Shown: positions 3,760 through 34,038, counted from the first letter of the stretch. The stretch: DNA of 54,673 nucleotides from Bacteriovoracia bacterium (GCA_046570105.1 JBKHVI010000012.1:1-54673); one strand, 5' to 3'. Program-made: numbers and translations. Notes: generated by a model from the sequence alone, not told the origin.

Positions 3760-4804
3760 GTGCGGGCTGATCGTGAATTTTCCAGAGAAATTGATTCGTG
3801 GAATGATGACGACAATAACTAATACAATTTTTTACATTAATCTCGTCTTCGATTTTTTTTGTTACCTGCTGAATACGATCTCCCGTAAATATCTCTTCAA
3901 AACTTTGTGTGTGTAGATCTCCGTAACAGAACTGAGGGTCTTTAAAAAACTGACTGCATGGATATATTTTACCGTCGGCCAAGATTTGAGTGATAAAAGG
4001 TGTTCCGAGACAACGCTTATATCCACGAGTACAATCGTTGTCCGAAAAATTGTTCCAACGAACGATCACTTTAAACTTATCATCACTCAATGTTTCGGCT
4101 CTCTTGAGTTCATCTATGGATTGTAAGTACAAGTCCTCCGGGACATCGTAATGATTATTCGGGTGCTTACTAAAACGTTTTACAACGTAATAATCAACTC
4201 CAAGTTCTTTTGAAAGTTTCGCCGTTTCATACACATCTCGGTAATTTTCATTAATCAGGATCTGCTGTGTTCCCAGAGTAACATTAAGTTTTTTGTCTCT
4301 TTTGACTTTTACCGCTTCCTGCACATTTTTAGTCGCACGCTCATAGTCGGTGCGGTGACCTTTATGAATCTCCTGATAGAGGCTGGGGTTTGAAGCTTGA
4401 AAAGTAAATCTGGCCCAGGTCAGGTGAGGCATTATGGCCTCTGACATTTCTTTCGTCAGCAACACGGCATTACTATTAATCGCCATATCTACGCCGTTAC
4501 GATGAGCTTTTTGAATCATCGAAACAATTCCCTTGTTTGCTGTTGGCTCACCCTCGCCTGCCAAAAGGACACTTTTCACTCCCAATTTGCCAAATTCATC
4601 GGCAAGAGAATCCATAATGCTCTCATCCAAGAAACCAGCTTTGTGACCGAGGTAATCGACATAGCAAAGGTTGCAACGTTGATTGCATCCACTTGTAGGG
4701 CTAATTTCCGCATGAATTGGAAAAAACTTTTCACCTTTCTTCCATTTCTCCACAACGGGCAGATGATGAATGAGTTTTGATCCGTCTAAAAAAAGTTCAG
4801 CCAT
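3743..4804 (-). CDS. Radical SAM/SPASM(twitch) protein, paralog A
   Basis: CNQRCNLC, GEGEPT, C-terminal C...DGKIYPC...YGDL...C..C. Confidence 0.9.
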   Translation of the reverse strand: MAELFLDGSKLIHHLPVVEKWKKGEKFFPIHAEISPTSGCNQRCNLCYVDYLGHKAGFLDESIMDSLADEFGKLGVKSVLLAGEGEPTANKGIVSMIQKAHRNGVDMAINSNAVLLTKEMSEAIMPHLTWARFTFQASNPSLYQEIHKGHRTDYERATKNVQEAVKVKRDKKLNVTLGTQQILINENYRDVYETAKLSKELGVDYYVVKRFSKHPNNHYDVPEDLYLQSIDELKRAETLSDDKFKVIVRWNNFSDNDCTRGYKRCLGTPFITQILADGKIYPCSQFFKDPQFCYGDLHTQSFEEIFTGDRIQQVTKKIEDEINVKNCISYCRHHSTNQFLWKIHDQPAHVNFI

Positions 4805-4812
4805 ATTTTATC

Positions 4813-5874
4813 CTAGATATAGTTCACATGCTGTGGTGGCGTTTTAATTTGCCATAAAAATTCATTTACTGAATTTGGACGACAAAAAGGCATACACTTC
4901 GATACATCCACATTGCAACGCACGTGTTTTCTTACGGCAAGAGCTCTGTCTGAATTCCAGAATTCTCCAAAAGAAGTTTTCATGACATTTCCAAGCTTGT
5001 GACTTTCATCTCCAATGTATGGGCCACAACTATACACATCACCTAGCGCATCAATCTCGATCATAAAATCAGTTGAGAGGCATTGTTTATAACTTCTCTC
5101 AAATTTATCCAAAAAGAGAGTTTTCCTTAAAACAAAATTAAATTCACTTCCAGATATCTGTTTCCCAAAATCAATTAGGTCATCCAGTACCTGGTCGAGA
5201 TTTTCAATCGTGTCATCGAACTTAATTTCTGGATGTTTCAAAAAAGGTTTTATTGATAAGTAATCAACACCGATGGATTTTACAAGTTCTGCCAATTGCT
5301 TGATCTCATTTTGATTATGACTCAGAAGTACGCACTGTACCCCAATCGTAATTGGGGATCCGGTAAGTTTCTTTTCTGCTACTAGTTTTTTAAGATTTTC
5401 CACAACTGCATCGAAATCGCTCGCTTGAGTGCCGTGGATGTGAGCATAGTTCTCCCTCGTTCCAGCATTCATACTTATTCGTATAAAAGATAGATCGCGG
5501 GCAAAGATAGGAATATTTTTAGCGTTTAATAAACGACCATTGCTATTAAGAGCAATATCAATACCAGCGGCCCTTGTAGCTGCAATCATTTCATGACAGC
5601 TCTTGTTCAATAATGGATCACCATCTCCCGCAAAAAAAACTGATCGTACACCTGCCATTTTCCATTCTTTTACCATTTCTTGGTATCTATCCAAGGGAAA
5701 GAATATCGGCTTGAATTCTTTGTAATGATAAACGCAGAAGATGCAGTGATGATTACAGTAACTGGTAGGGCTAAATGCAACATACACAGGTGTCGTGCTA
5801 CCTGTTTTTGTCCATTCATTGACTCGGTCGAGGTGATGGATCAGTTTATTTCCATCAAGCTGAAGATTGGTCAT
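4813..5874 (-). CDS. Radical SAM/SPASM(twitch) protein, paralog B
   Basis: CNHHCIFC, GDGDPL, GDVYSC..LGN; start ATG 5874 (GAGGA RBS) gives 353 aa, the same length as paralog A. Confidence 0.9.
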   Translation of the reverse strand: MTNLQLDGNKLIHHLDRVNEWTKTGSTTPVYVAFSPTSYCNHHCIFCVYHYKEFKPIFFPLDRYQEMVKEWKMAGVRSVFFAGDGDPLLNKSCHEMIAATRAAGIDIALNSNGRLLNAKNIPIFARDLSFIRISMNAGTRENYAHIHGTQASDFDAVVENLKKLVAEKKLTGSPITIGVQCVLLSHNQNEIKQLAELVKSIGVDYLSIKPFLKHPEIKFDDTIENLDQVLDDLIDFGKQISGSEFNFVLRKTLFLDKFERSYKQCLSTDFMIEIDALGDVYSCGPYIGDESHKLGNVMKTSFGEFWNSDRALAVRKHVRCNVDVSKCMPFCRPNSVNEFLWQIKTPPQHVNYI

Positions 5875-6796
5875 TACTTCCTCTAAGCAAACTCCTGAGG
5901 CTACCCACAACCTCATCTACACTCAGGGATTTCATGCAATGAATGATATTATGGCACTCAGCTTTATAGCAAGGCGGGCATGCAAACGCTGATCTTTCAG
6001 ATTCACTCAGTGCAATACCTTGTCCCAGATGAATTTCTCTTGAGGATGTTGGGCCAAATAGGGCCAAAATTTGCTTATCCAGGGCGCACGCAATGTGCAG
6101 CCCTAAGCTGTCATGAGTCACAAGCACTTGAACTGAATTAATCCAATTCAAATATTGGGACAAATCATCAAAACCCTCCTGCCAAGTAACGCTATGCAAA
6201 GAGCCAAGTTGGGTACTGAGCATTTTCCAGTTTTCTTGTGGCCAACTTTTTGTTGGCCACTTCACCCCAACCTGCCAATTGAGACCAATCGCAAAACGAT
6301 TTTCCTGAGATTGGTTCAGTCTGGTTTTTGAGATAAGATAATTTTCGCCCTTCCATTCACGCCCTAACAACAGATAGAGCTTTTCGCTCCAATTCTTTTG
6401 CAATACCGCTGGTTGGGCTAACCACTCTTCCAGCATCACTCCCTCTTGAGAGTTATGAAAACACAGCTCCCCATGCATGCCACGAAATCCCACAATTTTA
6501 TGTGGCGGAATGAGTTGGATAGCTCGAAGAATTGTCTCGTCTCGCTCGAGATTTATAATGAGATCATACTCATCAAAGGCTACCGTCGAGAGGTCTTGAT
6601 GCAGGACTTTAATAGCTGGAATGCCATCCAAAAGTAAGAATGCAGCGGAATGTGTCAGCCATGACACAGAATGTTCCTTTAGGGCATGCAAGATGACAGT
6701 GCTTCGCAATACATCACCAAGACTCACAACGCCTTGATGAGCATTTGCTCGATCAAAAGTTTCCGTCAAACCCGTTTTAATTATGAGGACATTCAT
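5855..6796 (-). CDS. Glycosyltransferase family 9 (heptosyltransferase-like)
   Basis: SLGDVLRST, K.WP, HDSLGLHIACAL, LFGPT, C.PC...C; start uncertain (6796/6808/6835). Confidence 0.85.
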   Translation of the reverse strand: MNVLIIKTGLTETFDRANAHQGVVSLGDVLRSTVILHALKEHSVSWLTHSAAFLLLDGIPAIKVLHQDLSTVAFDEYDLIINLERDETILRAIQLIPPHKIVGFRGMHGELCFHNSQEGVMLEEWLAQPAVLQKNWSEKLYLLLGREWKGENYLISKTRLNQSQENRFAIGLNWQVGVKWPTKSWPQENWKMLSTQLGSLHSVTWQEGFDDLSQYLNWINSVQVLVTHDSLGLHIACALDKQILALFGPTSSREIHLGQGIALSESERSAFACPPCYKAECHNIIHCMKSLSVDEVVGSLRSLLRGSNDQSSA

Positions 6797-25077: not shown

Positions 25078-26022
25078 ATGATCAAAAAAAGAGTGTTAGT
25101 CACTGGCGGAGCAGGTTTTCTTGGCTCACATCTTTGTGAGCGACTTTTAAACGATCAGCACCACGTTGTGTGCTTAGATAATCTCTTTACCGGCCAAAAA
25201 GAGAATATCGCTCACCTGTTAAGCAATCCAAGTTTCGAATTTGTTAATCACGACGTCACCATGCCGATTCAGATAAACGTCGATGAAATTTACAATCTCG
25301 CTTGTCCTGCTTCACCCAAATATTACCAACAAGACCCCGTGCAAACCGTTAAGACGAATGTGCACGGTGCGATTAATATGCTGGAACTCGCCAAACAAAC
25401 TAAAGCTAAAATTCTTCAGGCATCAACCAGCGAAGTGTACGGTGACCCCGAGATCCATCCGCAAAAAGAAGACTACTGGGGACGCGTGAATCCGATTGGG
25501 ATTCGCAGTTGTTATGATGAAGGTAAGCGCTGTGCTGAAACGCTATTCTCTGATTACCATCGGCAGTTCAAAATCAGAATTAAGATCATGCGCATCTTTA
25601 ATACCTATGGCCCGCGCATGCAGCTTGATGATGGTCGTGTTGTCTCAAACTTTATTGTGCAAGCACTCAACAATGAACCCATCACTATTTTTGGTGATGG
25701 CAAACAGACGCGCTCTTTTTGTTACGTGGATGATCTTATTGAAGCGCTCGTTCGTGGCATGAACACCGATGATGCTTTCACCGGCCCCATGAATATCGGC
25801 AACCCCAACGAATTTACTATTCTCGATTTGGCCCAAACCGTTTTGCGCCTCACCCACTCAAAATCTCAAATTACACTCAAGCCTCTCCCTTCTGATGATC
25901 CCAAACAACGCCAACCCGACATCACACTCGCCAAAGAATTAATTAATTGGGAGCCAACTATTCAGTTGGAAGCAGGACTGATGAAGACGATTGGTTATTT
26001 TAGAGAAGTTTTGCAGAAGTAA
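25078..26022 (+). CDS. UDP-glucuronate decarboxylase (UDP-xylose synthase)
   Basis: [58 protein letters not shown]. Confidence 0.95.
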
Positions 26023-26024
26023 AA

Positions 26025-26053
26025 TGGTGGAGTCTGCCCTAAAGTGGTCGAAC
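26025..26053. repeat. Left attachment junction (core TGGTGG plus attP arm TGGTCGAAC)
   Basis: Core identical to the tRNA 3' end; arm is the reverse complement of GTTCGACCA at the right junction. Confidence 0.8.
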
Positions 26054-26265
26054 ACCCTGTGATTGTTAAAAGATCACATTCAGTTCAATGGAAACGGAAA
26101 ATCTTTGACTTAAGTCAGGAGAAGCTCGCAACTCTTCGAGCGTCACATGGGTGGACTATAGCTCAAATGGTGGAACATCTGGGCTATAGCGAAACAACCA
26201 TTAAACGCTGCCTTTATGGGGTTGCTCGTAAAGACTTGAAGGGCAAGAGGAGGCTTCGTGGGTAA
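26044..26265 (+). CDS. Small HTH protein; in-frame C-terminal extension of the recombinase in the excised circle
   Basis: WTIAQMVEHLGYSETTIKRCL HTH; frame open back through the att core. Confidence 0.65.
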   Translation: MVEHPVIVKRSHSVQWKRKIFDLSQEKLATLRASHGWTIAQMVEHLGYSETTIKRCLYGVARKDLKGKRRLRG

Positions 26266-26419
26266 ACTCATTTCAATTGCGGCAACATTGGCATTTCTAG
26301 CAGTCGCTTCTGGTAATTTACCTTGGATTCTGTTTCAAGTTAAAAAGGCCAAGATTCAGCTCATTTCAGATTCGAAAGCAAGTAAGTGGCCGAAGGCCAT
26401 GACCTTGCCAAACCGTTAA
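26258..26419 (+). CDS. Small (53 aa) protein with hydrophobic N-terminus, not in ORF track
   Basis: GAGGAGG RBS before GTG 26258; MGKLISIAATLAFLAVASGNLPWILFQVKK...PNR*. Confidence 0.55.
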   Translation: MGKLISIAATLAFLAVASGNLPWILFQVKKAKIQLISDSKASKWPKAMTLPNR

Positions 26420-26495
26420 GTAAGTCCTATAAAATCGGAAGGTTGGAAGCTGCTTTTCGGTGCTAAGATAGCACAGAAGAACGAAGGAGGAGCAG

Positions 26496-26687
26496 ATGAA
26501 AAAAAGACCAAGTCTTAAAGAGATTAACGCTCATATGGATAAGCTTAATAAGCAAAAACCATCAAAAAAGCAAATTGAAGAATTGGGCGAAGTTATCCGC
26601 AAGATCAATGAAGAGAATGGAACTGATGAGAAAGTGATTCCTGCCAAGAAAATCGCCATCTCTGATGATCGTCCAGTGATGGAGTAA
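26496..26687 (+). CDS. Small charged protein upstream of PIN gene (possible antitoxin)
   Basis: AGGAGG RBS; 1-nt gap to the PIN gene. Confidence 0.6.
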   Translation: MKKRPSLKEINAHMDKLNKQKPSKKQIEELGEVIRKINEENGTDEKVIPAKKIAISDDRPVME

Positions 26688-26688
26688 G

Positions 26689-27507
26689 ATGGCCAGTAAC
26701 AGAATCGGTTTTAAGCAATTCAGAAACAAGCTTGAAAAGGGACAACAAGTTAATGTTGTGATCGATTCTAATATCCTCATTGCTAACTACGATGAGCTTC
26801 ATTCTAATCACGAACTCGTCCGGGCCTTCCTTGAAGAAATTGATGCCATTGCAGACATTACATTTTTTACAACTGTAACGACAAAGGCGGAATTTTTAGA
26901 TTATCAGAGGAAGCGCTTTCTTACGGAAGGACTTTTTGATCTCGTTGATGAGTACAACAAGGATATTCCGCTGAGTGCTGATTCCCGCAATGCGATCAAT
27001 CTCGCCAAGGGGCGCAGGAATAAGCGCCAAGGCGATGAAGAGGCTAAGGCCAACAAAGATCATGATTACGAATTTGATACTCGTGTAAGCTATCTGACTG
27101 ATAACGAGATCAAAGAAATCAAAAAGAAATTCAAGGCCAGAGATATTGATAACGAAACCGGCTGGCTCAAGGTCTGCGATACATTCTTAAAAGAAAAGCT
27201 TCTCGAGCAAGAAAAGTTGATCGATATTTTTTGTGAATATCTTTCTCCCCATAGAGATGAGCAAAAGGCTCTGTTTAATCAAATCTCAGTCGATTGGAAA
27301 AAGGCGACTGAGATTTCAGGCTCGTCTGGGATGGGATTTTCTGATTCGCTAATTCTCAATATGCTTCTACATACCAAGATCGACTATATTCTCACTCTGG
27401 ATTATGACATGATTTATGCAGCGGCTGTTTCGGCGAAGAATAAATGGGTGGTGTTGCCGGATTCAAGAATCGGGTCTTTTAAGAGTACGCTGAAGGGACT
27501 TCAGTAG
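26689..27507 (+). CDS. PIN-domain protein (putative ribonuclease/toxin)
   Basis: VVIDSNILIA ... EF ... FSDSLIL ... ILTLDYD acidic PIN signature. Confidence 0.75.
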   Translation: MASNRIGFKQFRNKLEKGQQVNVVIDSNILIANYDELHSNHELVRAFLEEIDAIADITFFTTVTTKAEFLDYQRKRFLTEGLFDLVDEYNKDIPLSADSRNAINLAKGRRNKRQGDEEAKANKDHDYEFDTRVSYLTDNEIKEIKKKFKARDIDNETGWLKVCDTFLKEKLLEQEKLIDIFCEYLSPHRDEQKALFNQISVDWKKATEISGSSGMGFSDSLILNMLLHTKIDYILTLDYDMIYAAAVSAKNKWVVLPDSRIGSFKSTLKGLQ

Positions 27508-27519
27508 GGTGTGGAACGC

Positions 27520-28158
27520 TTATATTCCCAGTCCCCTTGACTCTTCCTTGGATTTTTTTCCTATAGCTTCTTGTCTTGCCTTCTCAAATGCATCAAATCT
27601 TTTCAGATCTACCATAAAAAGCTCCAGCACCGAATTTCCACTTGCATACCACTCTGTAAAGATGGAAGACATGACATCACCATGGTAATGCCAAATGCCG
27701 TTGCATTGAGTGGTCGCACATTCAAAACGAAATTGATCATTAGAAAGAAATTGGACGACTTGTTCACGGGTCATTGACCTAGAAGGCTTGGTTTCATCAT
27801 GAGTAAACTTACCTAATAATGTGTCTGAAATAGCTTGACTCCCATTGCGAATATTCTTTTCATCTTTAAATATGACCTCAAGAGTAATGAGAGGAAGAGA
27901 TGATTCCAGCATTGAAAATTTAAGCTGCATGGTTTTTATATGAGGAGAGATGTTCTTGCAGGTATATACATAGGCGAGCTTCTCTTCTTTGTACTCCCCA
28001 GAGATATCCAGACATTTTGAAAAATCTGGGTTTGATTTAAATTCAGCATAGGTTGTTTTTGAGGGAACAAAACCTCGGAAGTCAGGTTGGTAAGTAGCTC
28101 TACCCAAACAAGATGCGCAAAAAACAAGTATGATGTATTTGAAAGGTCTGATATTCAT
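27520..28158 (-). CDS. Hypothetical (lipo)protein
   Basis: Likely start MNIRPFKYIILVFCASC (lipobox-like). Confidence 0.6.
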   Translation of the reverse strand: MNIRPFKYIILVFCASCLGRATYQPDFRGFVPSKTTYAEFKSNPDFSKCLDISGEYKEEKLAYVYTCKNISPHIKTMQLKFSMLESSLPLITLEVIFKDEKNIRNGSQAISDTLLGKFTHDETKPSRSMTREQVVQFLSNDQFRFECATTQCNGIWHYHGDVMSSIFTEWYASGNSVLELFMVDLKRFDAFEKARQEAIGKKSKEESRGLGI

Positions 28159-28186
28159 ATTACTCCTAATTCTTTTTACATCGTGA

Positions 28187-28513
28187 TTAGGAAAAATCGA
28201 AGTAATGGTTTCCAGCATTTTTGTACCCTGTGGAGCGTTTCACGATATAACATCGTGGCCAGATGCTAAAATATTGATCTTCTGAGTTTTTCCCTGTTGA
28301 ACCCTTCAATAAAATTTCTATAACTCCATTTTGGTGGGCATTGCTTATGATGCTTGTCAATGTGTTGCGATGGGAGGACGGTTTTTCTATTTCAAAAACA
28401 AAATTTCTGTCAGATGTCTCAAAGTAGAAATTTTTGGTTTCGCCTATTTTACTTCCCTCTGGAGTATCCAGAAGTGCTATGGCATCTTGTATCTGCTTCT
28501 TGCTGATATTCAT
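28187..28513 (-). CDS. Hypothetical protein
   Basis: ORF in a co-oriented run; start probably ATG 28513. Confidence 0.45.
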   Translation of the reverse strand: MNISKKQIQDAIALLDTPEGSKIGETKNFYFETSDRNFVFEIEKPSSHRNTLTSIISNAHQNGVIEILLKGSTGKNSEDQYFSIWPRCYIVKRSTGYKNAGNHYFDFS

Positions 28514-28532
28514 AAAGTTCTTTCTCTCTGCT

Positions 28533-29585
28533 TTAAGGTTCAATATGTTTTGAAATCTGATCAAACTTAAACTCACTGAATAGTGCAGGGATGTTCACGT
28601 TGACGCTAATGTTGATAGTTTTTTTGTCTTCACTTCTATTTATATCTAGCGATGTCACACCAATCAGAAGAAGACTTGTAAGCTCAGTCCTCTTTTCTTT
28701 GTTAAAAAGAAGAGGTTTAAGAACCTCGTTACAGCTTCTCCCAAGGTGACAATCATAATAGGTAGATTTGTCTCTGTTCGCCAGCAGTGAAAAGTGTTGG
28801 TATGTATCCAGGGCTAAATCTCCTTTAGGTGCGCTAAGTATGTATTCGGAATGAGGTGATGAGAATTGTTCTCTGAGCTCTTCTCGTTTAATGGAAAGAG
28901 TGGAGAATTTGAAAGAGGTTTCTCGTTTATCGACAGGAAGGGGCGTGTGATCTTCCAAGTAGTCGAGGAAAATTTTTTCACGGACAAGTTCTGCTGCTCT
29001 ATAGAGGGCATCAACAATGAATTGGTCTAGCTCTAAAGCTCTACTTGCAACAGCTTCGTTTTTCATCAACCCAGAATGGTTTGAATACTGATAACTTTTT
29101 TTGAAGTGGAGCGGTTCCTTTAAAGACTTTAAGCTCTCTAGCTTATTCTTTGGGCTAATACTGTCAATCGCATTAGAAAATTCTTTGGCAAGGGCTTCTG
29201 GGGTGTATGTCGTATACTGATCGTGTTCATAAAGTTCATCCATCTGTTCGCGGGATGGTCTTCCTAGGCGATTCTTGTAGATGATAATCTTGTCTGCGCG
29301 ATCAATTCTGCTTTCCTTGCCTAAGAAGTAAATTTTTTCTCGGTTACAGAGAGAAGAGTAGATTTCTGTGAAATTATCTATATCGATAGGATTACTGTGG
29401 AGGGCCTTTGCCTTCAGGTCCTTCTTTAGTAAGTCATCTTTATAAAGTTCAGGGAAAACGGGCAGCTTTTCAAGAGTGTCTGTTGCCTTGGAGCATAATG
29501 GATATTCAGATATTGCCACACTCTTGAGTTTTGGTTTTGATGCACACCCAAGCAACAAAGCTAGAAGGATAATATATTTATTCAT
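28533..29585 (-). CDS. Hypothetical lipoprotein
   Basis: MNKYIILLALLLGC lipobox. Confidence 0.75.
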   Translation of the reverse strand: MNKYIILLALLLGCASKPKLKSVAISEYPLCSKATDTLEKLPVFPELYKDDLLKKDLKAKALHSNPIDIDNFTEIYSSLCNREKIYFLGKESRIDRADKIIIYKNRLGRPSREQMDELYEHDQYTTYTPEALAKEFSNAIDSISPKNKLESLKSLKEPLHFKKSYQYSNHSGLMKNEAVASRALELDQFIVDALYRAAELVREKIFLDYLEDHTPLPVDKRETSFKFSTLSIKREELREQFSSPHSEYILSAPKGDLALDTYQHFSLLANRDKSTYYDCHLGRSCNEVLKPLLFNKEKRTELTSLLLIGVTSLDINRSEDKKTINISVNVNIPALFSEFKFDQISKHIEP

Positions 29586-30339
29586 ACAAAGACCTCTTTT
29601 TTGATTCTTTGGCAGCTTTCTTCTTCTGAATTACTTTTTCTTTTGCTGAGACTTTCTCTTTCTCTTCAAGAACAGCTTTTCTGACTCCCCCAAAACATTT
29701 TTCCACTACACCATTTTTATAGGCGGCATCTCTTAATTCATGGGCCTTTTCATCGCTCTCGAAGTCCTCATATGATGAGTTTTTTGCGTAATATTCACTG
29801 AGACATATGCAGGCCTTTACGACTTCAGGATGATACCCATTTGAATGAGAAAGTTTATAGCCACTTGATTTGTTATGAATGCAGAATCCGATCTCGTAGT
29901 TTAAAGGAGTAGATTTCTTGCCTGGCAGAACTTTTTGAATTTCATCCTTAAAATTATTTGGAGAGTATTTTGATTTTTCCGAGACCCAGTCGAGGTAGAA
30001 ACCATCTTTATCTTTACCCAATTTAGGTTTATTCATTTGAGCGGTTTGAAACTCTTTTGCATTTTTTCCACATTTGTATCCAGAGGCAGCTTTGATATAA
30101 AAACATTCAATTTTCTGGCCGCTCTCTTTTTCCAGAGATCCCTTTATGGCATAGCAGTTACCGTCATTTTGCATCTTTTTTTGGTAGTAAGGATCATTGA
30201 ATGCATTGTCGTTGGTGACTTGGCCTAAATACTCGTAAGACTTATTCCAGCACTGCTCCAGTTGCCCTAGGGATGCTCCTGATACCGTTGAAAGTCCAAA
30301 AAGTAGAATTACTGGTAAAAACAATAAGGTCATTTTCAT
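29578..30339 (-). CDS. Hypothetical secreted Cys-containing protein
   Basis: Signal peptide, several Cys, basic tail. Confidence 0.7.
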   Translation of the reverse strand: MKMTLLFLPVILLFGLSTVSGASLGQLEQCWNKSYEYLGQVTNDNAFNDPYYQKKMQNDGNCYAIKGSLEKESGQKIECFYIKAASGYKCGKNAKEFQTAQMNKPKLGKDKDGFYLDWVSEKSKYSPNNFKDEIQKVLPGKKSTPLNYEIGFCIHNKSSGYKLSHSNGYHPEVVKACICLSEYYAKNSSYEDFESDEKAHELRDAAYKNGVVEKCFGGVRKAVLEEKEKVSAKEKVIQKKKAAKESKKRSLYE

Positions 30340-30685
30340 AGCCGTAGCTCGCTTGTTATTTAACTCTTTATTTTTATTGTAGTTTAGAACTTCCTATTTC
30401 CAAATAAAGGCAAATATTCCTTCTGCTCTGAGTTGAATATGACTCGGAGTCCCATGACGGCTATTGATAAGAGGTGATTTAAGGAAATTTGGCCCGCAAT
30501 TTTGCGGTTATTACTAAGGAGGCCGTTAAAAATGAAGCTTTAAAGAAGATGATCGGAAAATCTTCTTCAGTATAGAGCTTCCACAAACCACATACAATCC
30601 TTTTTCCTCATATCAGAAACTATGCGCGACTCCATGATGCCTTTTTACGGTTACGGATTTTTATTACCTAAAACTGGAGGTCTTC

Positions 30686-31117
30686 GTGTCAGAGCAAAAT
30701 TTAAAGTGGCTATTTCTGCTGCTCCCATTTCTATTAGCTAAATTGATGGAATGGAGTGGTACGGCCACACCAGCAAACTTGATTTACAAGGGGCTGATCT
30801 ATACCCAGTACGGAGTTGGCCTTTTCTTTGTCCTTGGTATCGGTTTTTACTTTGGGCTTTGGTGGAACGATAAGAAGGACCGAACTTTTTCAAAACTCAA
30901 AGAAGAATGTCTTAAGGAGATCGGTTACAGATTTGCTGACGTTAAGCACGATTATGTCCCGATGAAAGAGGAAATTTGTCGTCTCAAAATTCTCTTGGAT
31001 CAAGTGGAGCGAAGAGAAAGATATTTCCGACAGCAGTTTGAAGAAGCAATAGTCCATTCAAGAAGAACGCCCGAGGATGCTAATAAAGCGGCACTCGCAA
31101 GTGTAGCGGAGGTGTAA
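30686..31117 (+). CDS. Membrane protein with coiled-coil tail
   Basis: GGAGG RBS, two hydrophobic segments; abuts the next gene. Confidence 0.7.
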   Translation: MSEQNLKWLFLLLPFLLAKLMEWSGTATPANLIYKGLIYTQYGVGLFFVLGIGFYFGLWWNDKKDRTFSKLKEECLKEIGYRFADVKHDYVPMKEEICRLKILLDQVERRERYFRQQFEEAIVHSRRTPEDANKAALASVAEV

Positions 31118-31954
31118 ATGAAACTTACTCCCCGTGACCTTCGTCTTCTAAAGTTACTAGCAAACTATGGGGTGCTTTCAACCCATCAGATCGAAAAGTT
31201 TGTGTTTAATTCCATTGCGACGACGACAGTGCTTCGCCGATTGCGTGTGCTTGAACGGGCCAATCTTTTGAAAAGGATTATAGGTCTTGAGTCCTATGAG
31301 CTTCTCTGGATGCTGACGGCCGAAGGCGGAAGAACGGCCAAAGTAGCCGTTTCAAAAAGCAAATGGGGTAAGAATATGCTGGAACATGATCACAAACTTG
31401 TGGGCCTTCGGATTGCTTTAGAAGTCAGTGGTATTTCTCATTCATGGACACCAGAGCATGAGATTAGATCATTCATTGTAAGAAAACATGGAATCAAAAA
31501 CATGAAAGATCGGATTGTACCAGATGCTTTTATGGGAATTTCTGTGAACGGCTTTAAACATTCAGTGGCAATTGAATTGGAACTAACCCTGAAAAATAAA
31601 ACAAAAATCAGAAAAACCTTGAGTCGCTACATTGAGAAAGGAAAGTTTCATGCTCTTTGGTATGTAGCCCCGAAAAAATCAATTCTTGATAGTGTATGGA
31701 GGCAATGGCTGTCTCTAGGCGGTCAGAGCAGTGGAATCATTTTCTATGCCTCATTGCTCCCTGAAGTGATGGAGAACGCCATCAAAGCAAGACTGATGGG
31801 AACGAAACCACATCGAGTAATTGAACAGATTTGGAATCAAAAAAGTGTTCTTGAAGCTGCTCAGGTGGTGAGCAGGCAAAATAAGATAAAAAATGAAAGT
31901 ATCAATGATGTAAATCAAGATTATCACGCGCCTTTATTGCAAGAAACTGGATAA
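31118..31954 (+). CDS. Replication-relaxation (Replic_Relax) family protein
   Basis: MKLTPRDLRLL..L..YGVLST.QI wHTH, H.H, W..E, PDA, AIELELT.K (PD-(D/E)xK-like). Confidence 0.8.
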   Translation: MKLTPRDLRLLKLLANYGVLSTHQIEKFVFNSIATTTVLRRLRVLERANLLKRIIGLESYELLWMLTAEGGRTAKVAVSKSKWGKNMLEHDHKLVGLRIALEVSGISHSWTPEHEIRSFIVRKHGIKNMKDRIVPDAFMGISVNGFKHSVAIELELTLKNKTKIRKTLSRYIEKGKFHALWYVAPKKSILDSVWRQWLSLGGQSSGIIFYASLLPEVMENAIKARLMGTKPHRVIEQIWNQKSVLEAAQVVSRQNKIKNESINDVNQDYHAPLLQETG

Positions 31955-31961
31955 CGAATTC

Positions 31962-32028
31962 GCCGCCTCCACCACTGACCTCCCACCCCCAACGATGTTG
32001 AAGGTAGGAGGTCAGTGCTTACGGCGGC
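31962..32028. repeat. Long imperfect inverted repeat (candidate origin/oriT or structured RNA)
   Basis: gccgcc...cactgacctcccacc (31973-31987) / ggtaggaggtcagtg (32003-32017)...ggcggc, inner caac-gat-gttg. Confidence 0.7.
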
Positions 32029-32148
32029 TATGGGGGAATTAAGAGATATTGGCGCGTAGAGAAGAGAAATTAAAAACAGAGGGAACATAATGAAGGAAAC
32101 AAATGAAAATGCTGTTTGCGAATCCCAAATAAAATGTAGGGGAATGGC

Positions 32149-32340
32149 ATGGGAACGAAATGGAATCCAATTAAAACGGAGAGAAAGGTCGTTGAAATTG
32201 ATGAAAAACTATTTGAGAGACGACTTGATGAATTGGCAGAACTTTTCTATGATGCTTTTTGCGAGCTTCATAAAAACCGTTCTGTTGAACCTAAACTTAA
32301 ATCTTCTTGTGCTGAACAAGAATTAGAAAAGGTAGGCTAA
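32149..32340 (+). CDS. Small protein immediately upstream of the recombinase
   Basis: GGGGA RBS; ends 2 nt before the recombinase ATG. Confidence 0.55.
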   Translation: MGTKWNPIKTERKVVEIDEKLFERRLDELAELFYDAFCELHKNRSVEPKLKSSCAEQELEKVG

Positions 32341-32342
32341 AC

Positions 32343-33983
32343 ATGAATGAATCAATCTCAACACATTTTAAATGCGCTCTCTACGTTCGAGTTTCGACCG
32401 AAGAACAAGCAGAAAATCCCGAAGGTTCAATTAGAAACCAAGAGGAACGATTGCGTCAAACAGTCCGCTATCAGCAGGATATGGGCAAGTCCTCCGAGAT
32501 AGCAGGAGTCTATGTAGATGCAGGTTTATCGGCTAAGGACATGAATCGTCCTGCACTTCAGCGACTTTTAAAAGCTGTTGAAGTCGGTGATGTTAATCTT
32601 GTGATGGTCACAGAATTATCTCGTCTCTCCCGTAGTACAAAAGACTTTGAAGGGATGTGGGAATTTTTTAAGAGCAAGGGATGTGAGTTCCATTCACTTA
32701 GAGAAAATTTTGATACAACCACCGCAGCGGGAGAACTCATGTTGAAATCTTTTGCAAACTTCGCTGAATTTGAAAGGAAGCAGACGGCAGAAAGAATCTC
32801 TGCGAGTTTTAAAGTGAGAGCAGAGAGAGGCCTGTATAATGGGGGAAATGTACCATTTGGGTACTCCTTATCTGCAACTCCCGGAAGGCTAGACGTAAAT
32901 CCTGAAGAGTCTGAAATTGTAAGAATTGCTTATAAGACTTTCTTAAGAGAGGGAACACTATCTTCTGCCTGCCTTTGGTTAAATGGAAATGGTTATACCC
33001 TCCGAAAGAAAATGGAAGGAAGCGGATGGATGCGAGCAGGTCATTTCAATGTGGATACACTTCACAAGATTCTGACTAACAAGGCCTACATTGGGGTCAA
33101 GGTCTTTACTACCAAGTTAGGTAAAAAAGAAGCAAAGGCCGTGTGGAAAGCGATCATTGATGAAGTGATCTTCGCAGAGGTGAAAGAAAGACTTTCTAAA
33201 AATCATTGCGCCAAGAAACCAGAAGCTGCGAATCGTTTTCCATTTGTTCTTACAGAAGTCATTTATTGTGGCGTGTGCGGTGAAAAATTATGTGGAAAGT
33301 CTGCTCATGGAAAAACCAAAAAGCACCCTTATTATGAACATTCAAGACGTACAAAGATTCAGAGTGGACTAGCAGAAAAGATTTACAACTGCGATCCACA
33401 TCGGATTCCTGCAGAGAAAGCCGAAGAAATGGTTTGGCTGGACATTGAACAGCTTCTTAATGGAAATATCGCGCAAAAGCTTCTTTCAAGTGTGATGACA
33501 AAGAGAAATAAAAACCAGTTTTCAAATGAGATTGAGAGGTTAAAAAACAAAACTTATTCCATCAATGCCCAGACCGATGCGCTGACACTTAGGCTTGCCG
33601 AACTTCCAAGGGAAGTTTCGGCGGCACCGATTTATAAACAAATGGAAAAGTTAGGGATTGAGAAAAGGAATGTGGAAGAAAGAATCTTGAAGCTTAAAGA
33701 TGAGGAGTTGGAAAAGGAAGTTCCTGCTGATGCGATTACTTATGAAAAGTTTTTGGATATTTTACGGGATTTGAAGGCCAGTGGAATAACGACGGCCAAA
33801 AAGCAAAAAATAATAACGAGCTTAGTGGAAAGGATTGAGATTTTTCCTGACAGAATTGAAATTCATTATGGTTTGGGGATATCGAGAGTTAAACGGGAGC
33901 TGGCCATCGCCAGCTCTCTCTTAAATAAATCTCTGGTCGAAAGTTCGACCAGCTTGACAAGTGGTGGGGCCAACAGGACTTGA
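32343..33983 (+). CDS. Large serine recombinase (integrase)
   Basis: YVRVST catalytic Ser, RPALQRLL, SRLSRS, FAEFER, PFGY, recombinase domain, CGVCG Zn ribbon, coiled coil; 3' end reads into the tRNA. Confidence 0.95.
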   Translation: MNESISTHFKCALYVRVSTEEQAENPEGSIRNQEERLRQTVRYQQDMGKSSEIAGVYVDAGLSAKDMNRPALQRLLKAVEVGDVNLVMVTELSRLSRSTKDFEGMWEFFKSKGCEFHSLRENFDTTTAAGELMLKSFANFAEFERKQTAERISASFKVRAERGLYNGGNVPFGYSLSATPGRLDVNPEESEIVRIAYKTFLREGTLSSACLWLNGNGYTLRKKMEGSGWMRAGHFNVDTLHKILTNKAYIGVKVFTTKLGKKEAKAVWKAIIDEVIFAEVKERLSKNHCAKKPEAANRFPFVLTEVIYCGVCGEKLCGKSAHGKTKKHPYYEHSRRTKIQSGLAEKIYNCDPHRIPAEKAEEMVWLDIEQLLNGNIAQKLLSSVMTKRNKNQFSNEIERLKNKTYSINAQTDALTLRLAELPREVSAAPIYKQMEKLGIEKRNVEERILKLKDEELEKEVPADAITYEKFLDILRDLKASGITTAKKQKIITSLVERIEIFPDRIEIHYGLGISRVKRELAIASSLLNKSLVESSTSLTSGGANRT

Positions 33984-34038
33984 ACCTGTAACCACCCGGT
34001 TATGAGCCGGGAGCTCTAACCAATTGAGCTATAGCCCC
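33962..34038 (-). tRNA. tRNA with CAT anticodon (likely Ile2/lysidine type; elongator Met not excluded)
   Basis: GGGGCTATAGCTCAATTGGTTAGAGC-TCCCGG-CTCATAA-CCGGG-TGGTTACAGGTTCAAGTCCTGTTGGCCCCACCA, 77 nt, encoded CCA. Confidence 0.95.

Follow-up and report, generated by a model that had tools for sequence, protein, structure and literature searches.

We analysed a 54,673-nucleotide stretch of DNA from a predatory, soil-dwelling Bacteriovoracia bacterium (GCA_046570105.1 JBKHVI010000012.1:1-54673), referred to here as the window, which is contig C12 of a 3.0-Mb metagenome-assembled Bacteriovoracaceae genome in 131 contigs. Record titles among its relatives include Bacteriovoracaceae bacterium and Bacteriovorax. 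The window carries a small integrative element lodged against a tRNA-Met gene. The large serine recombinase gene of this element (its integrase) runs out through one edge of the element, and an open reading frame (ORF) for a helix-turn-helix (HTH) domain begins at the other edge, on the same strand. We provide evidence that the two probably form a single gene on the circular element, and that integration divides it. The features that bear on this reading are:

26031-33967, plus strand: integrative element of 7,937 bp, the same length whichever core copy is counted
26025-26030, unstranded: left core copy, TGGTGG (attL)
33962-33967, unstranded: right core copy, TGGTGG (attR), the complement of the CCACCA end of the tRNA
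33962-34038, minus strand: tRNA-Met(CAT), the integration target (ARAGORN), whose first six window bases are the core copy
25078-26022, plus strand: left-flank chromosomal gene of the NAD-dependent epimerase/dehydratase family (Pfam Epimerase 2e-53, GDP_Man_Dehyd 2.4e-53)
32343-33983, plus strand: large serine recombinase gene in its integrated state, 546 residues
26032-26265, plus strand: HTH tail ORF, 77 codons plus stop (the ORF call from GTG is 26044-26265)
26031-26053, plus strand: P' arm of the deduced attP, in which bases 26045-26053 pair with 33943-33951 as an inverted repeat
33933-33961: P arm of the deduced attP, within the integrase coding region, with its repeat arm at 33943-33951

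The boundaries of the element can be placed from several independent junctions. Insertion leaves tRNA-Met(CAT), the sole tRNA that ARAGORN finds in the window, intact, and the TAA of the epimerase-family gene ends at 26022, 2 bases before the left core. In a same-genus genome (G221:C147, locus L083) an empty attB is preserved, with the epimerase stop followed directly by TGGTGG and tRNA-Met. We also used four sequencing runs (X1-X4) as Logan contigs, in which rare variants are dropped; X1 may be the source sample of the window. One X1 contig joins 26024 to 33962; it skips 7,937 bases, and 6 letters at the joint are ambiguous. At depth 3.6 it is thinner than both the flank (about 14.6) and the element (about 8-10), and its shorter side spans only 24 letters; we take this joint as support for the boundaries, not as decisive. 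In the groundwater metagenomes X2 and X3, contigs aligning to 32246-33967 of the window carry a close relative of the integrase (71 differing letters in about 1,550-1,720 bases) and run past 33967 into another tRNA-like 3' end, and two X3 contigs have another left flank, which ends at 26024. A blastn comparison with a further relative (G192:C149) shows 90.6% identity from 26024 on and unrelated sequence before it. Because the empty site in G221, the X1 joint, the X2 and X3 breakpoints and the G192 homology break agree, we conclude from these alignments that the element ends at the hexamer copies, and we treat its boundaries as established. The X2 and X3 contigs further indicate that near-identical enzymes use different tRNA genes. 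Together, the empty site, the empty-site contig and the relatives at other tRNAs point indirectly to attP x attB recombination by this recombinase.

The protein encoded at the right edge has the full complement of a large serine recombinase: Pfam identifies Resolvase (6.5e-34, residues 12-163), Recombinase (4.8e-13, 187-287) and Zn_ribbon_recom (1.5e-8, 303-368) domains, the zinc ribbon being accompanied by a coiled coil. It matches the PHROG 95 integrase family at 6.6e-100, and its best-scoring NCBIfam model is CcrB (3.1e-41, below the cut-off of that model). An AlphaFold model is ordered to residue 526, with long helices at 392-420 and 428-457, and residues 526-546 have a per-residue confidence score (pLDDT) below 50 and no secondary structure. 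In the integrated state the antisense strand of the tRNA supplies the last four residues (ANRT) and the stop of the 546-residue ORF, which leaves 542 residues of the integrase's own. When 32343-33967 is joined by script to 26031-26265, as on a circle, the result is 1,860 nt long and reads through 619 codons before it meets its first stop, at the end. The frame that the integrase enters after 26031 stays open for 77 codons, and the other two frames stop after 3 and 9 codons. The original prediction had placed the crossover core TGGTGG inside the 3' end of the recombinase gene and had given a 546-residue integrated frame and a 619-residue circular frame; its coordinates, lengths and frames all agree with the scripted join, and the two state-dependent protein forms it described follow from the sequence and recur across the family surveyed below.

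The stretch that the circular frame would add has the properties of a genuine protein domain. It matches Pfam HTH_31 at 9.6e-6 (26.3 bits, just below the 27-bit cut-off), and its ratio of nonsynonymous to synonymous substitution (dN/dS) is 0.16-0.26 in four pairs, compared with 0.09 for the integrase measured against its 96%-identical relative. These ratios indicate that the tail is coding and under purifying selection. Its AlphaFold model (pLDDT 73) has helices at residues 29-39, 43-50, 54-62 and 64-71, and its first 28 residues are non-helical. The best fold matches are to HTH types of sigma region 4, LuxR and DeoR, none at E<=0.001, and sequence comparison with solved structures returns only weak, generic HTH matches. 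The predicted fold is thus that of a generic HTH of three to four helices.

Bringing the two edges together gives a deduced attP with 9-nt inverted arms that lie 10 nt (P) and 14 nt (P') from the hexamer, the centre of symmetry falling inside the hexamer. Across the 13 elements whose att arms were compared, a T-loop-like motif in P and P' lies, by eye, about 4-5 bp farther from the core than does the T-arm in the tRNA half of attB, and the attB half downstream of the tRNA has no conserved motif. Serine integrases typically show such an offset when the half-sites of attP and attB are compared. Judging from the aligned arms, the T-loop-like region is likely to be the handle by which the target is recognized, and this would explain how close relatives come to use different tRNAs. 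Crossover would take place at a dinucleotide within TGGTGG. According to the structural models, it falls in DNA that encodes a linker, as integrase residues 526-546 are those with pLDDT below 50 and the first 28 residues of the tail are those without helix.

Just 3' of tRNA-Met, and antisense to the last codons of the integrase, the minus strand can fold at 33952-33933 into a terminator-like hairpin that is followed by a T-rich run; its stem has 8 pairs, 5 of them GC, and it is a consensus match only. After insertion the element may supply the terminator of tRNA-Met. Additionally, 26153-26171, in the HTH ORF, is 89% complementary over 19 nt to the 5' part of the tRNA-Met gene (34019-34037). 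This complementarity is probably due to chance, and the encoded residues differ in elements at other tRNAs.

We surveyed 238 genomes of the order. Integrase homologues at E<=1e-30 occur in 64 genomes and HTH profile matches at E<=1e-4 in 71. A tRNA abuts the integrase 3' end on the opposite strand in 22 of the best 29 integrase loci (L004-L032), the tRNAs being Met, Val, three Leu, two Arg and Pro, and the integrase ORF crosses the tRNA 3' end in 21 of these 22, stopping within the tRNA in 18 and beyond it in 3. We then compared 17 elements in which a single contig carries both integrase and HTH (that of the window plus L062-L073 and L100-L103, with L100 and L101 judged by eye); outside this set stand the pairs G034:C19, G142:C213, G013:C110, G235:C27 and G007:C8, the last with its HTH on the opposite strand. 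In every one of the 17 the HTH occupies the far end, on the integrase strand. Each time it also continues the integrase frame through the shared core and stays open from there on, so the distal HTH is kept in frame across att in every homologous element compared. The shared cores differ between elements, are 6-13 bp long and begin with the complement of the tRNA CCA, and the tRNAs used are Met, Val, Leu, Arg, Asp and Pro. The smallest element with genes listed (G201, 4.08 kb) retains HTH and integrase as a conserved pair, and the G063 element measures about 3.1 kb by core coordinates alone.

Other loci met in the survey deserve mention. The cargo of the G201 element (L062, G201:C1) consists of histidine-kinase genes, at 5455-6624. 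L064, L071 and L077 have tRNA-3'-like ends but no whole tRNA or transfer-messenger RNA (tmRNA) by ARAGORN or Rfam, and they may adjoin remnants of tRNAs from earlier insertions. A second serine recombinase fragment, 38% identical, lies at a contig start elsewhere in the genome of the window (L002, G000:C20:1-1900), and its frame continues through the antisense strand of tRNA-Arg(CCG) for about 90 further codons.

These features suggest a mechanism in which the state of the DNA selects the form of the enzyme. A large serine recombinase resembling CcrB and the Dehalococcoides enzyme DsiB would insert the element at the CCA end of tRNA-Met, using an attP that sits inside the recombinase reading frame, in a stretch predicted to encode an unstructured linker. 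The P arm would encode the last residues of the recombinase core, and the P' arm the start of the 77-residue HTH tail. On the circle, whether excised or incoming, the gene would be whole and would specify a 619-residue Int-HTH protein. The fusion would be made whenever the recombinase is translated from attP DNA, because no stop lies between recombinase and HTH, and the long form must be the integrating enzyme, because entry into a new chromosome depends on integrase that the circle itself encodes. Integration would then cut the gene at the linker, giving a 546-residue enzyme of 542 own residues and four arbitrary ones from the antisense tRNA, and would strand the HTH stub at the far end of the element without the integrase translation start. 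On the reading that we prefer, loss of the tail would lower or redirect recombination and so stabilize the inserted state, as reported for the change from IntP to IntX in the phage Mx8, and the tail would most likely aid integration or restrain excision. For this strain we infer that the element circularizes, that the long protein is produced and that losing the tail alters activity. A gene-splitting isoform switch of this kind is probably real in vivo.

Several observations weigh against this reading. No circle junction of the element occurs among the X1-X4 contigs, although the dropping of rare variants makes this result uninformative on absence, and no RNA runs carrying the element are listed. 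Querying longer proteins with the HTH recovered only 1 fused protein, from G192, and a query with the integrase C-terminus returned 16 homologues of 308-573 residues and none longer. Patterns for the attP form gave 0 matches (first pattern) and 1 ambiguous match (second pattern, L106) in metagenome contigs, and both patterns and a protein search gave 0 in viral contigs. At one of the 22 tRNA-abutting loci (L014, G009:C109) the integrase stops 14 nt before the tRNA. Conservation of the frame is itself weak evidence of selection: since the arms of attP have an unchangeable geometry and run into both ORFs, the frame relation is inherited from a common ancestor; across four or five spacer codons, the a-priori chance that the two ORFs share a frame and meet no stop is about 0.25-0.3; and the 17 elements represent perhaps 8 independent lineages.

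Two loci do carry an uninterrupted frame, and their interpretation cuts both ways. In G192:C149 (L074, 7,299 bp; 4431-6362), a recombinase 35% identical to that of the window, with the same arm geometry, passes through the hexamer into an HTH 82% identical to that of the window, and homologues of the window's next genes follow. In G014:C183 (L099, 200-1854), a 408-residue ORF runs from zinc ribbon and coiled coil through a core motif into an HTH of the tail family. However, the G192 recombinase has one in-frame TAA, and the G014 ORF carries 13 additional residues ahead of the core and an IS66 transposase fragment in place of its N-terminus; either could be a tandem or decayed arrangement and not a live circle. 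They look like frozen attP sites with a disabled recombinase, and dead recombinases fit the idea that attP persists in assembled DNA only once it is unable to recombine. A histidine-kinase gene lies beside the G014 fragment (L099, 2553-3830).

The HTH profile matched 2,332 proteins at E<=0.001 among 1.84 billion representatives; within the best 150 of these, the only single-stretch long protein is that of G192 (P0001), and the rest are mostly short stand-alone calls or many-repeat HTH proteins. P0002, P0003, P0004 and others among the latter have 7-23 repeated HTH matches, for example 12 in 834 residues and 23 in 4,162 residues, and thus consist of HTH-like repeats in arrays. The ambiguous L106 ORF extends 160 residues past the core motif, with an HTH-like stretch and a Recombinase-domain fragment; we did not count it as a third uninterrupted form, as it resembles the tail family only weakly (hhalign probability 6%, E 0.006). 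The pattern scans took in metagenome and viral contigs, and more contiguous forms may exist in the genomes of the order.

The alternative that survives best takes the HTH for a gene in its own right, coding for a regulator or for a DNA-binding directionality factor such as Xis of phiRv1. Its 5' end would overlap P' by chance, continuity of the frame would be a by-product of the compact, fixed attP, and the tail fused on the circle would have no role. In the window, GGAG precedes a GTG at 26044 by 11 nt. Five of the 17 elements, counting that of the window, offer a GTG or ATG whose Shine-Dalgarno-like motif comes from the core, and gene callers give stand-alone proteins of 61-129 residues in many clusters. 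Moreover, purifying selection on the ORF holds under either translation route, and shared ancestry can account for conservation of the frame. On the other hand, 3 of the 17 elements have no usable start (ATG, GTG or TTG) between the core and a conserved Trp, the Shine-Dalgarno-like motif is absent from most other elements, and the short database calls have varying starts, often in flanking DNA (by eye, uncounted). A chance overlap also sits poorly with an ORF that starts inside P', at the element's edge and on the integrase strand, in 17 of 17 cases, and the lack of a stop on the circle means that the fusion accompanies any integrase translation there. We therefore regard a separate gene as unlikely. 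The free HTH protein first proposed to accompany the short integrase in the integrated state fares differently by locus: the window is among the elements with a Shine-Dalgarno-like start, but with such a start in 5 of 17 and no start at all in 3, a free protein is doubtful as a general feature.

It is much less probable that the element is a fixed remnant, with no excision, no circle and no long form in this strain. The lack of a circle junction among the X1-X4 contigs would agree with this, as would a promoter scan that found 11 promoter-like sites against 15.3 expected in shuffled sequence, that is, no excess. Yet the integrase ORF is intact (with the dN/dS of 0.09 given above), X1 holds the empty-site contig at depth 3.6 alongside occupied sites, and the integrase has a close relative at another tRNA in X2 and X3 and relatives at at least 8 tRNA species. 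The remaining alternative, that the hexamer repeat is a chance match and the true ends lie elsewhere, starts from the many chance occurrences expected of a 6-nt repeat in 8 kb and is negligible given an empty site in G221:C147 that ends precisely at the hexamer, an X1 joint that skips exactly the element but for 6 ambiguous letters, breakpoints at 33967 and 26024 in X2 and X3, the homology break at 26024 in G192:C149 and inverted-repeat arms that surround the core.

Thus, taken as a whole, division of one integrase gene by its own attachment site is in our judgement probably the best explanation of the locus. What the tail does is a separate matter. A role in directionality is possible, and we hold it tentatively. 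A stronger version is rather doubtful, namely that the tail is a built-in directionality switch that needs no separate recombination directionality factor, such that the long form only integrates and the short form excises, alone or with the orphan tail. If it were true, the state of the DNA would specify the reaction that the enzyme carries out, and recognition of the T-loop-like motif by the zinc ribbon would explain how the family hops between tRNA genes.

Between the tail and the integrase the element carries the following cargo and accessory features:

26258-31117, unstranded: cargo region of small ORFs, most with no Pfam or PHROG family
26689-27507: 272-residue protein with a weak PIN/VapC-like N-terminus (TIGR00028 6.4e-4, far below cut-off)
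27520-30339, minus strand: four ORFs with no family, some with a hydrophobic, signal-like N-terminus (judged by reading)
30686-31117: 143-residue ORF with an N-terminal hydrophobic stretch
31118-31954, plus strand: gene for a replication-relaxation (MobC-like) protein (Pfam Replic_Relax 8.8e-8; NCBIfam MobC_subf 3.8e-8, below cut-off)
31962-32028: GC-rich hairpin with 32-nt arms, 78% complementary, and a 3-nt loop, between the MobC-like gene and the integrase region

The hairpin is a candidate origin of transfer or terminator. Because a Replic_Relax/MobC-like gene is present, the element is possibly a small integrative, mobilisable or plasmid-like element. Its ORFs have no match to relaxase, conjugation or phage structural families in Pfam or PHROG, and neither the two patterns nor a protein query brought up a relative among viral contigs.

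The closest known case is DsiB, a CcrB-like serine recombinase of the Dehalococcoides ssrA islands. Its gene always overlaps the att site at the 3' end, its stop codon lies only outside the island, and the authors suggest that it is perhaps fully functional only on the circle (PMC3146451). Like DsiB, the window's enzyme belongs to the large serine recombinases, lies at the margin of an integrating, possibly mobilisable island and targets the 3' part of a tRNA-like gene, and it too scores best against the CcrB model. The defining trait, a recombinase gene that overlaps the att site and stops outside the island, was found in the window and in 21 of the 22 family loci. The two differ in other respects. 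DsiB targets the tmRNA gene (ssrA), with insertion at the T loop and a 20-bp direct repeat, whereas here ordinary tRNAs are used, with crossover at the CCA end and a 6-bp repeat. The Dehalococcoides islands also have a second small recombinase, DsiA, in a six-gene module that includes RecF-like, ParB-like and Mom-like proteins, and among the ORFs of the present element we find no DsiA, RecF-like, ParB-like or Mom-like companion. The available text of the DsiB paper reports no in-frame distal domain that completes the gene (PMC3146451).

A second precedent is the Myxococcus phage Mx8, whose attP lies within int. Integration turns IntP into IntX, with a new 3' end, and the altered integrase is described as changed in its properties, not inactivated, and is called a molecular switch (PMC6070905). 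The shared feature is an attP inside the integrase coding sequence, such that integration yields a recombinant gene with a new 3' end (PMC6070905, PMC4383910). The Mx8 attachment site is reportedly a tRNA gene, the Mx8 enzyme is a tyrosine recombinase and, to our knowledge, the part that its integrase loses is not a separate HTH domain. Mx8 and the present system are thus unrelated in chemistry and in the architecture of their sites.

The 'suicidal' integrases of the SSV1 type, in archaeal viruses and plasmids, similarly have the site within the ORF, and integration splits the gene (PMC7253208). These are tyrosine recombinases split into two inactive pieces, whereas here the catalytic and site-binding domains would stay together and the tail alone would be removed. 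Unlike Mx8 and SSV1, the window's protein has only serine-recombinase domains by Pfam, with no tyrosine catalytic domain, and the resemblance to both is one of gene layout, not ancestry, on this comparison. Some mycobacteriophages show integration-dependent immunity, in which attP lies inside the repressor gene and the integrase is a tyrosine recombinase. There too attP sits in a gene and the C-termini differ between free and integrated forms, but it is the repressor that is split. The analogies with SSV1 and with integration-dependent immunity drawn at the outset are therefore fair, with DsiB and the IntP/IntX pair of Mx8 as closer precedents.

The phage serine integrases phiC31, Bxb1 and SPbeta work with separate directionality factors, and fusions of integrase and directionality factor have been studied (PMC5737554). 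The window's enzyme shares with them the order of Resolvase, Recombinase, and zinc ribbon with coiled coil, and its deduced att sites may, like theirs, be short with inverted arms. The canonical enzymes differ from this element in having attP outside the gene, a separate factor that sets direction, and non-tRNA targets. The gene listing of the G201 element shows the HTH tail and no further, separate conserved partner. According to the Islander paper, serine integrases had not been known to use tRNA genes as targets (PMC4383910); the present family shows that they do, at Met, Val, Leu, Arg, Asp and Pro.

These comparisons have consequences for annotation and for the understanding of serine integrases more broadly. 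An orphan HTH gene and the odd C-terminal residues of an integrase would be two halves of one gene, and each orphan HTH of the family would mark an island edge. Searches of full-text literature, subscription journals excepted, turned up no paper in which a distal HTH is reported to complete the gene of a serine integrase in frame. Earlier literature on related enzymes, such as that on DsiB, had already hinted at a design of this kind. Serine integrases are prized as one-way tools for genome engineering, and the natural control of their direction is an active question. Known control of direction rests on separate factors, and a protein form chosen by the state of the DNA would be a different solution.

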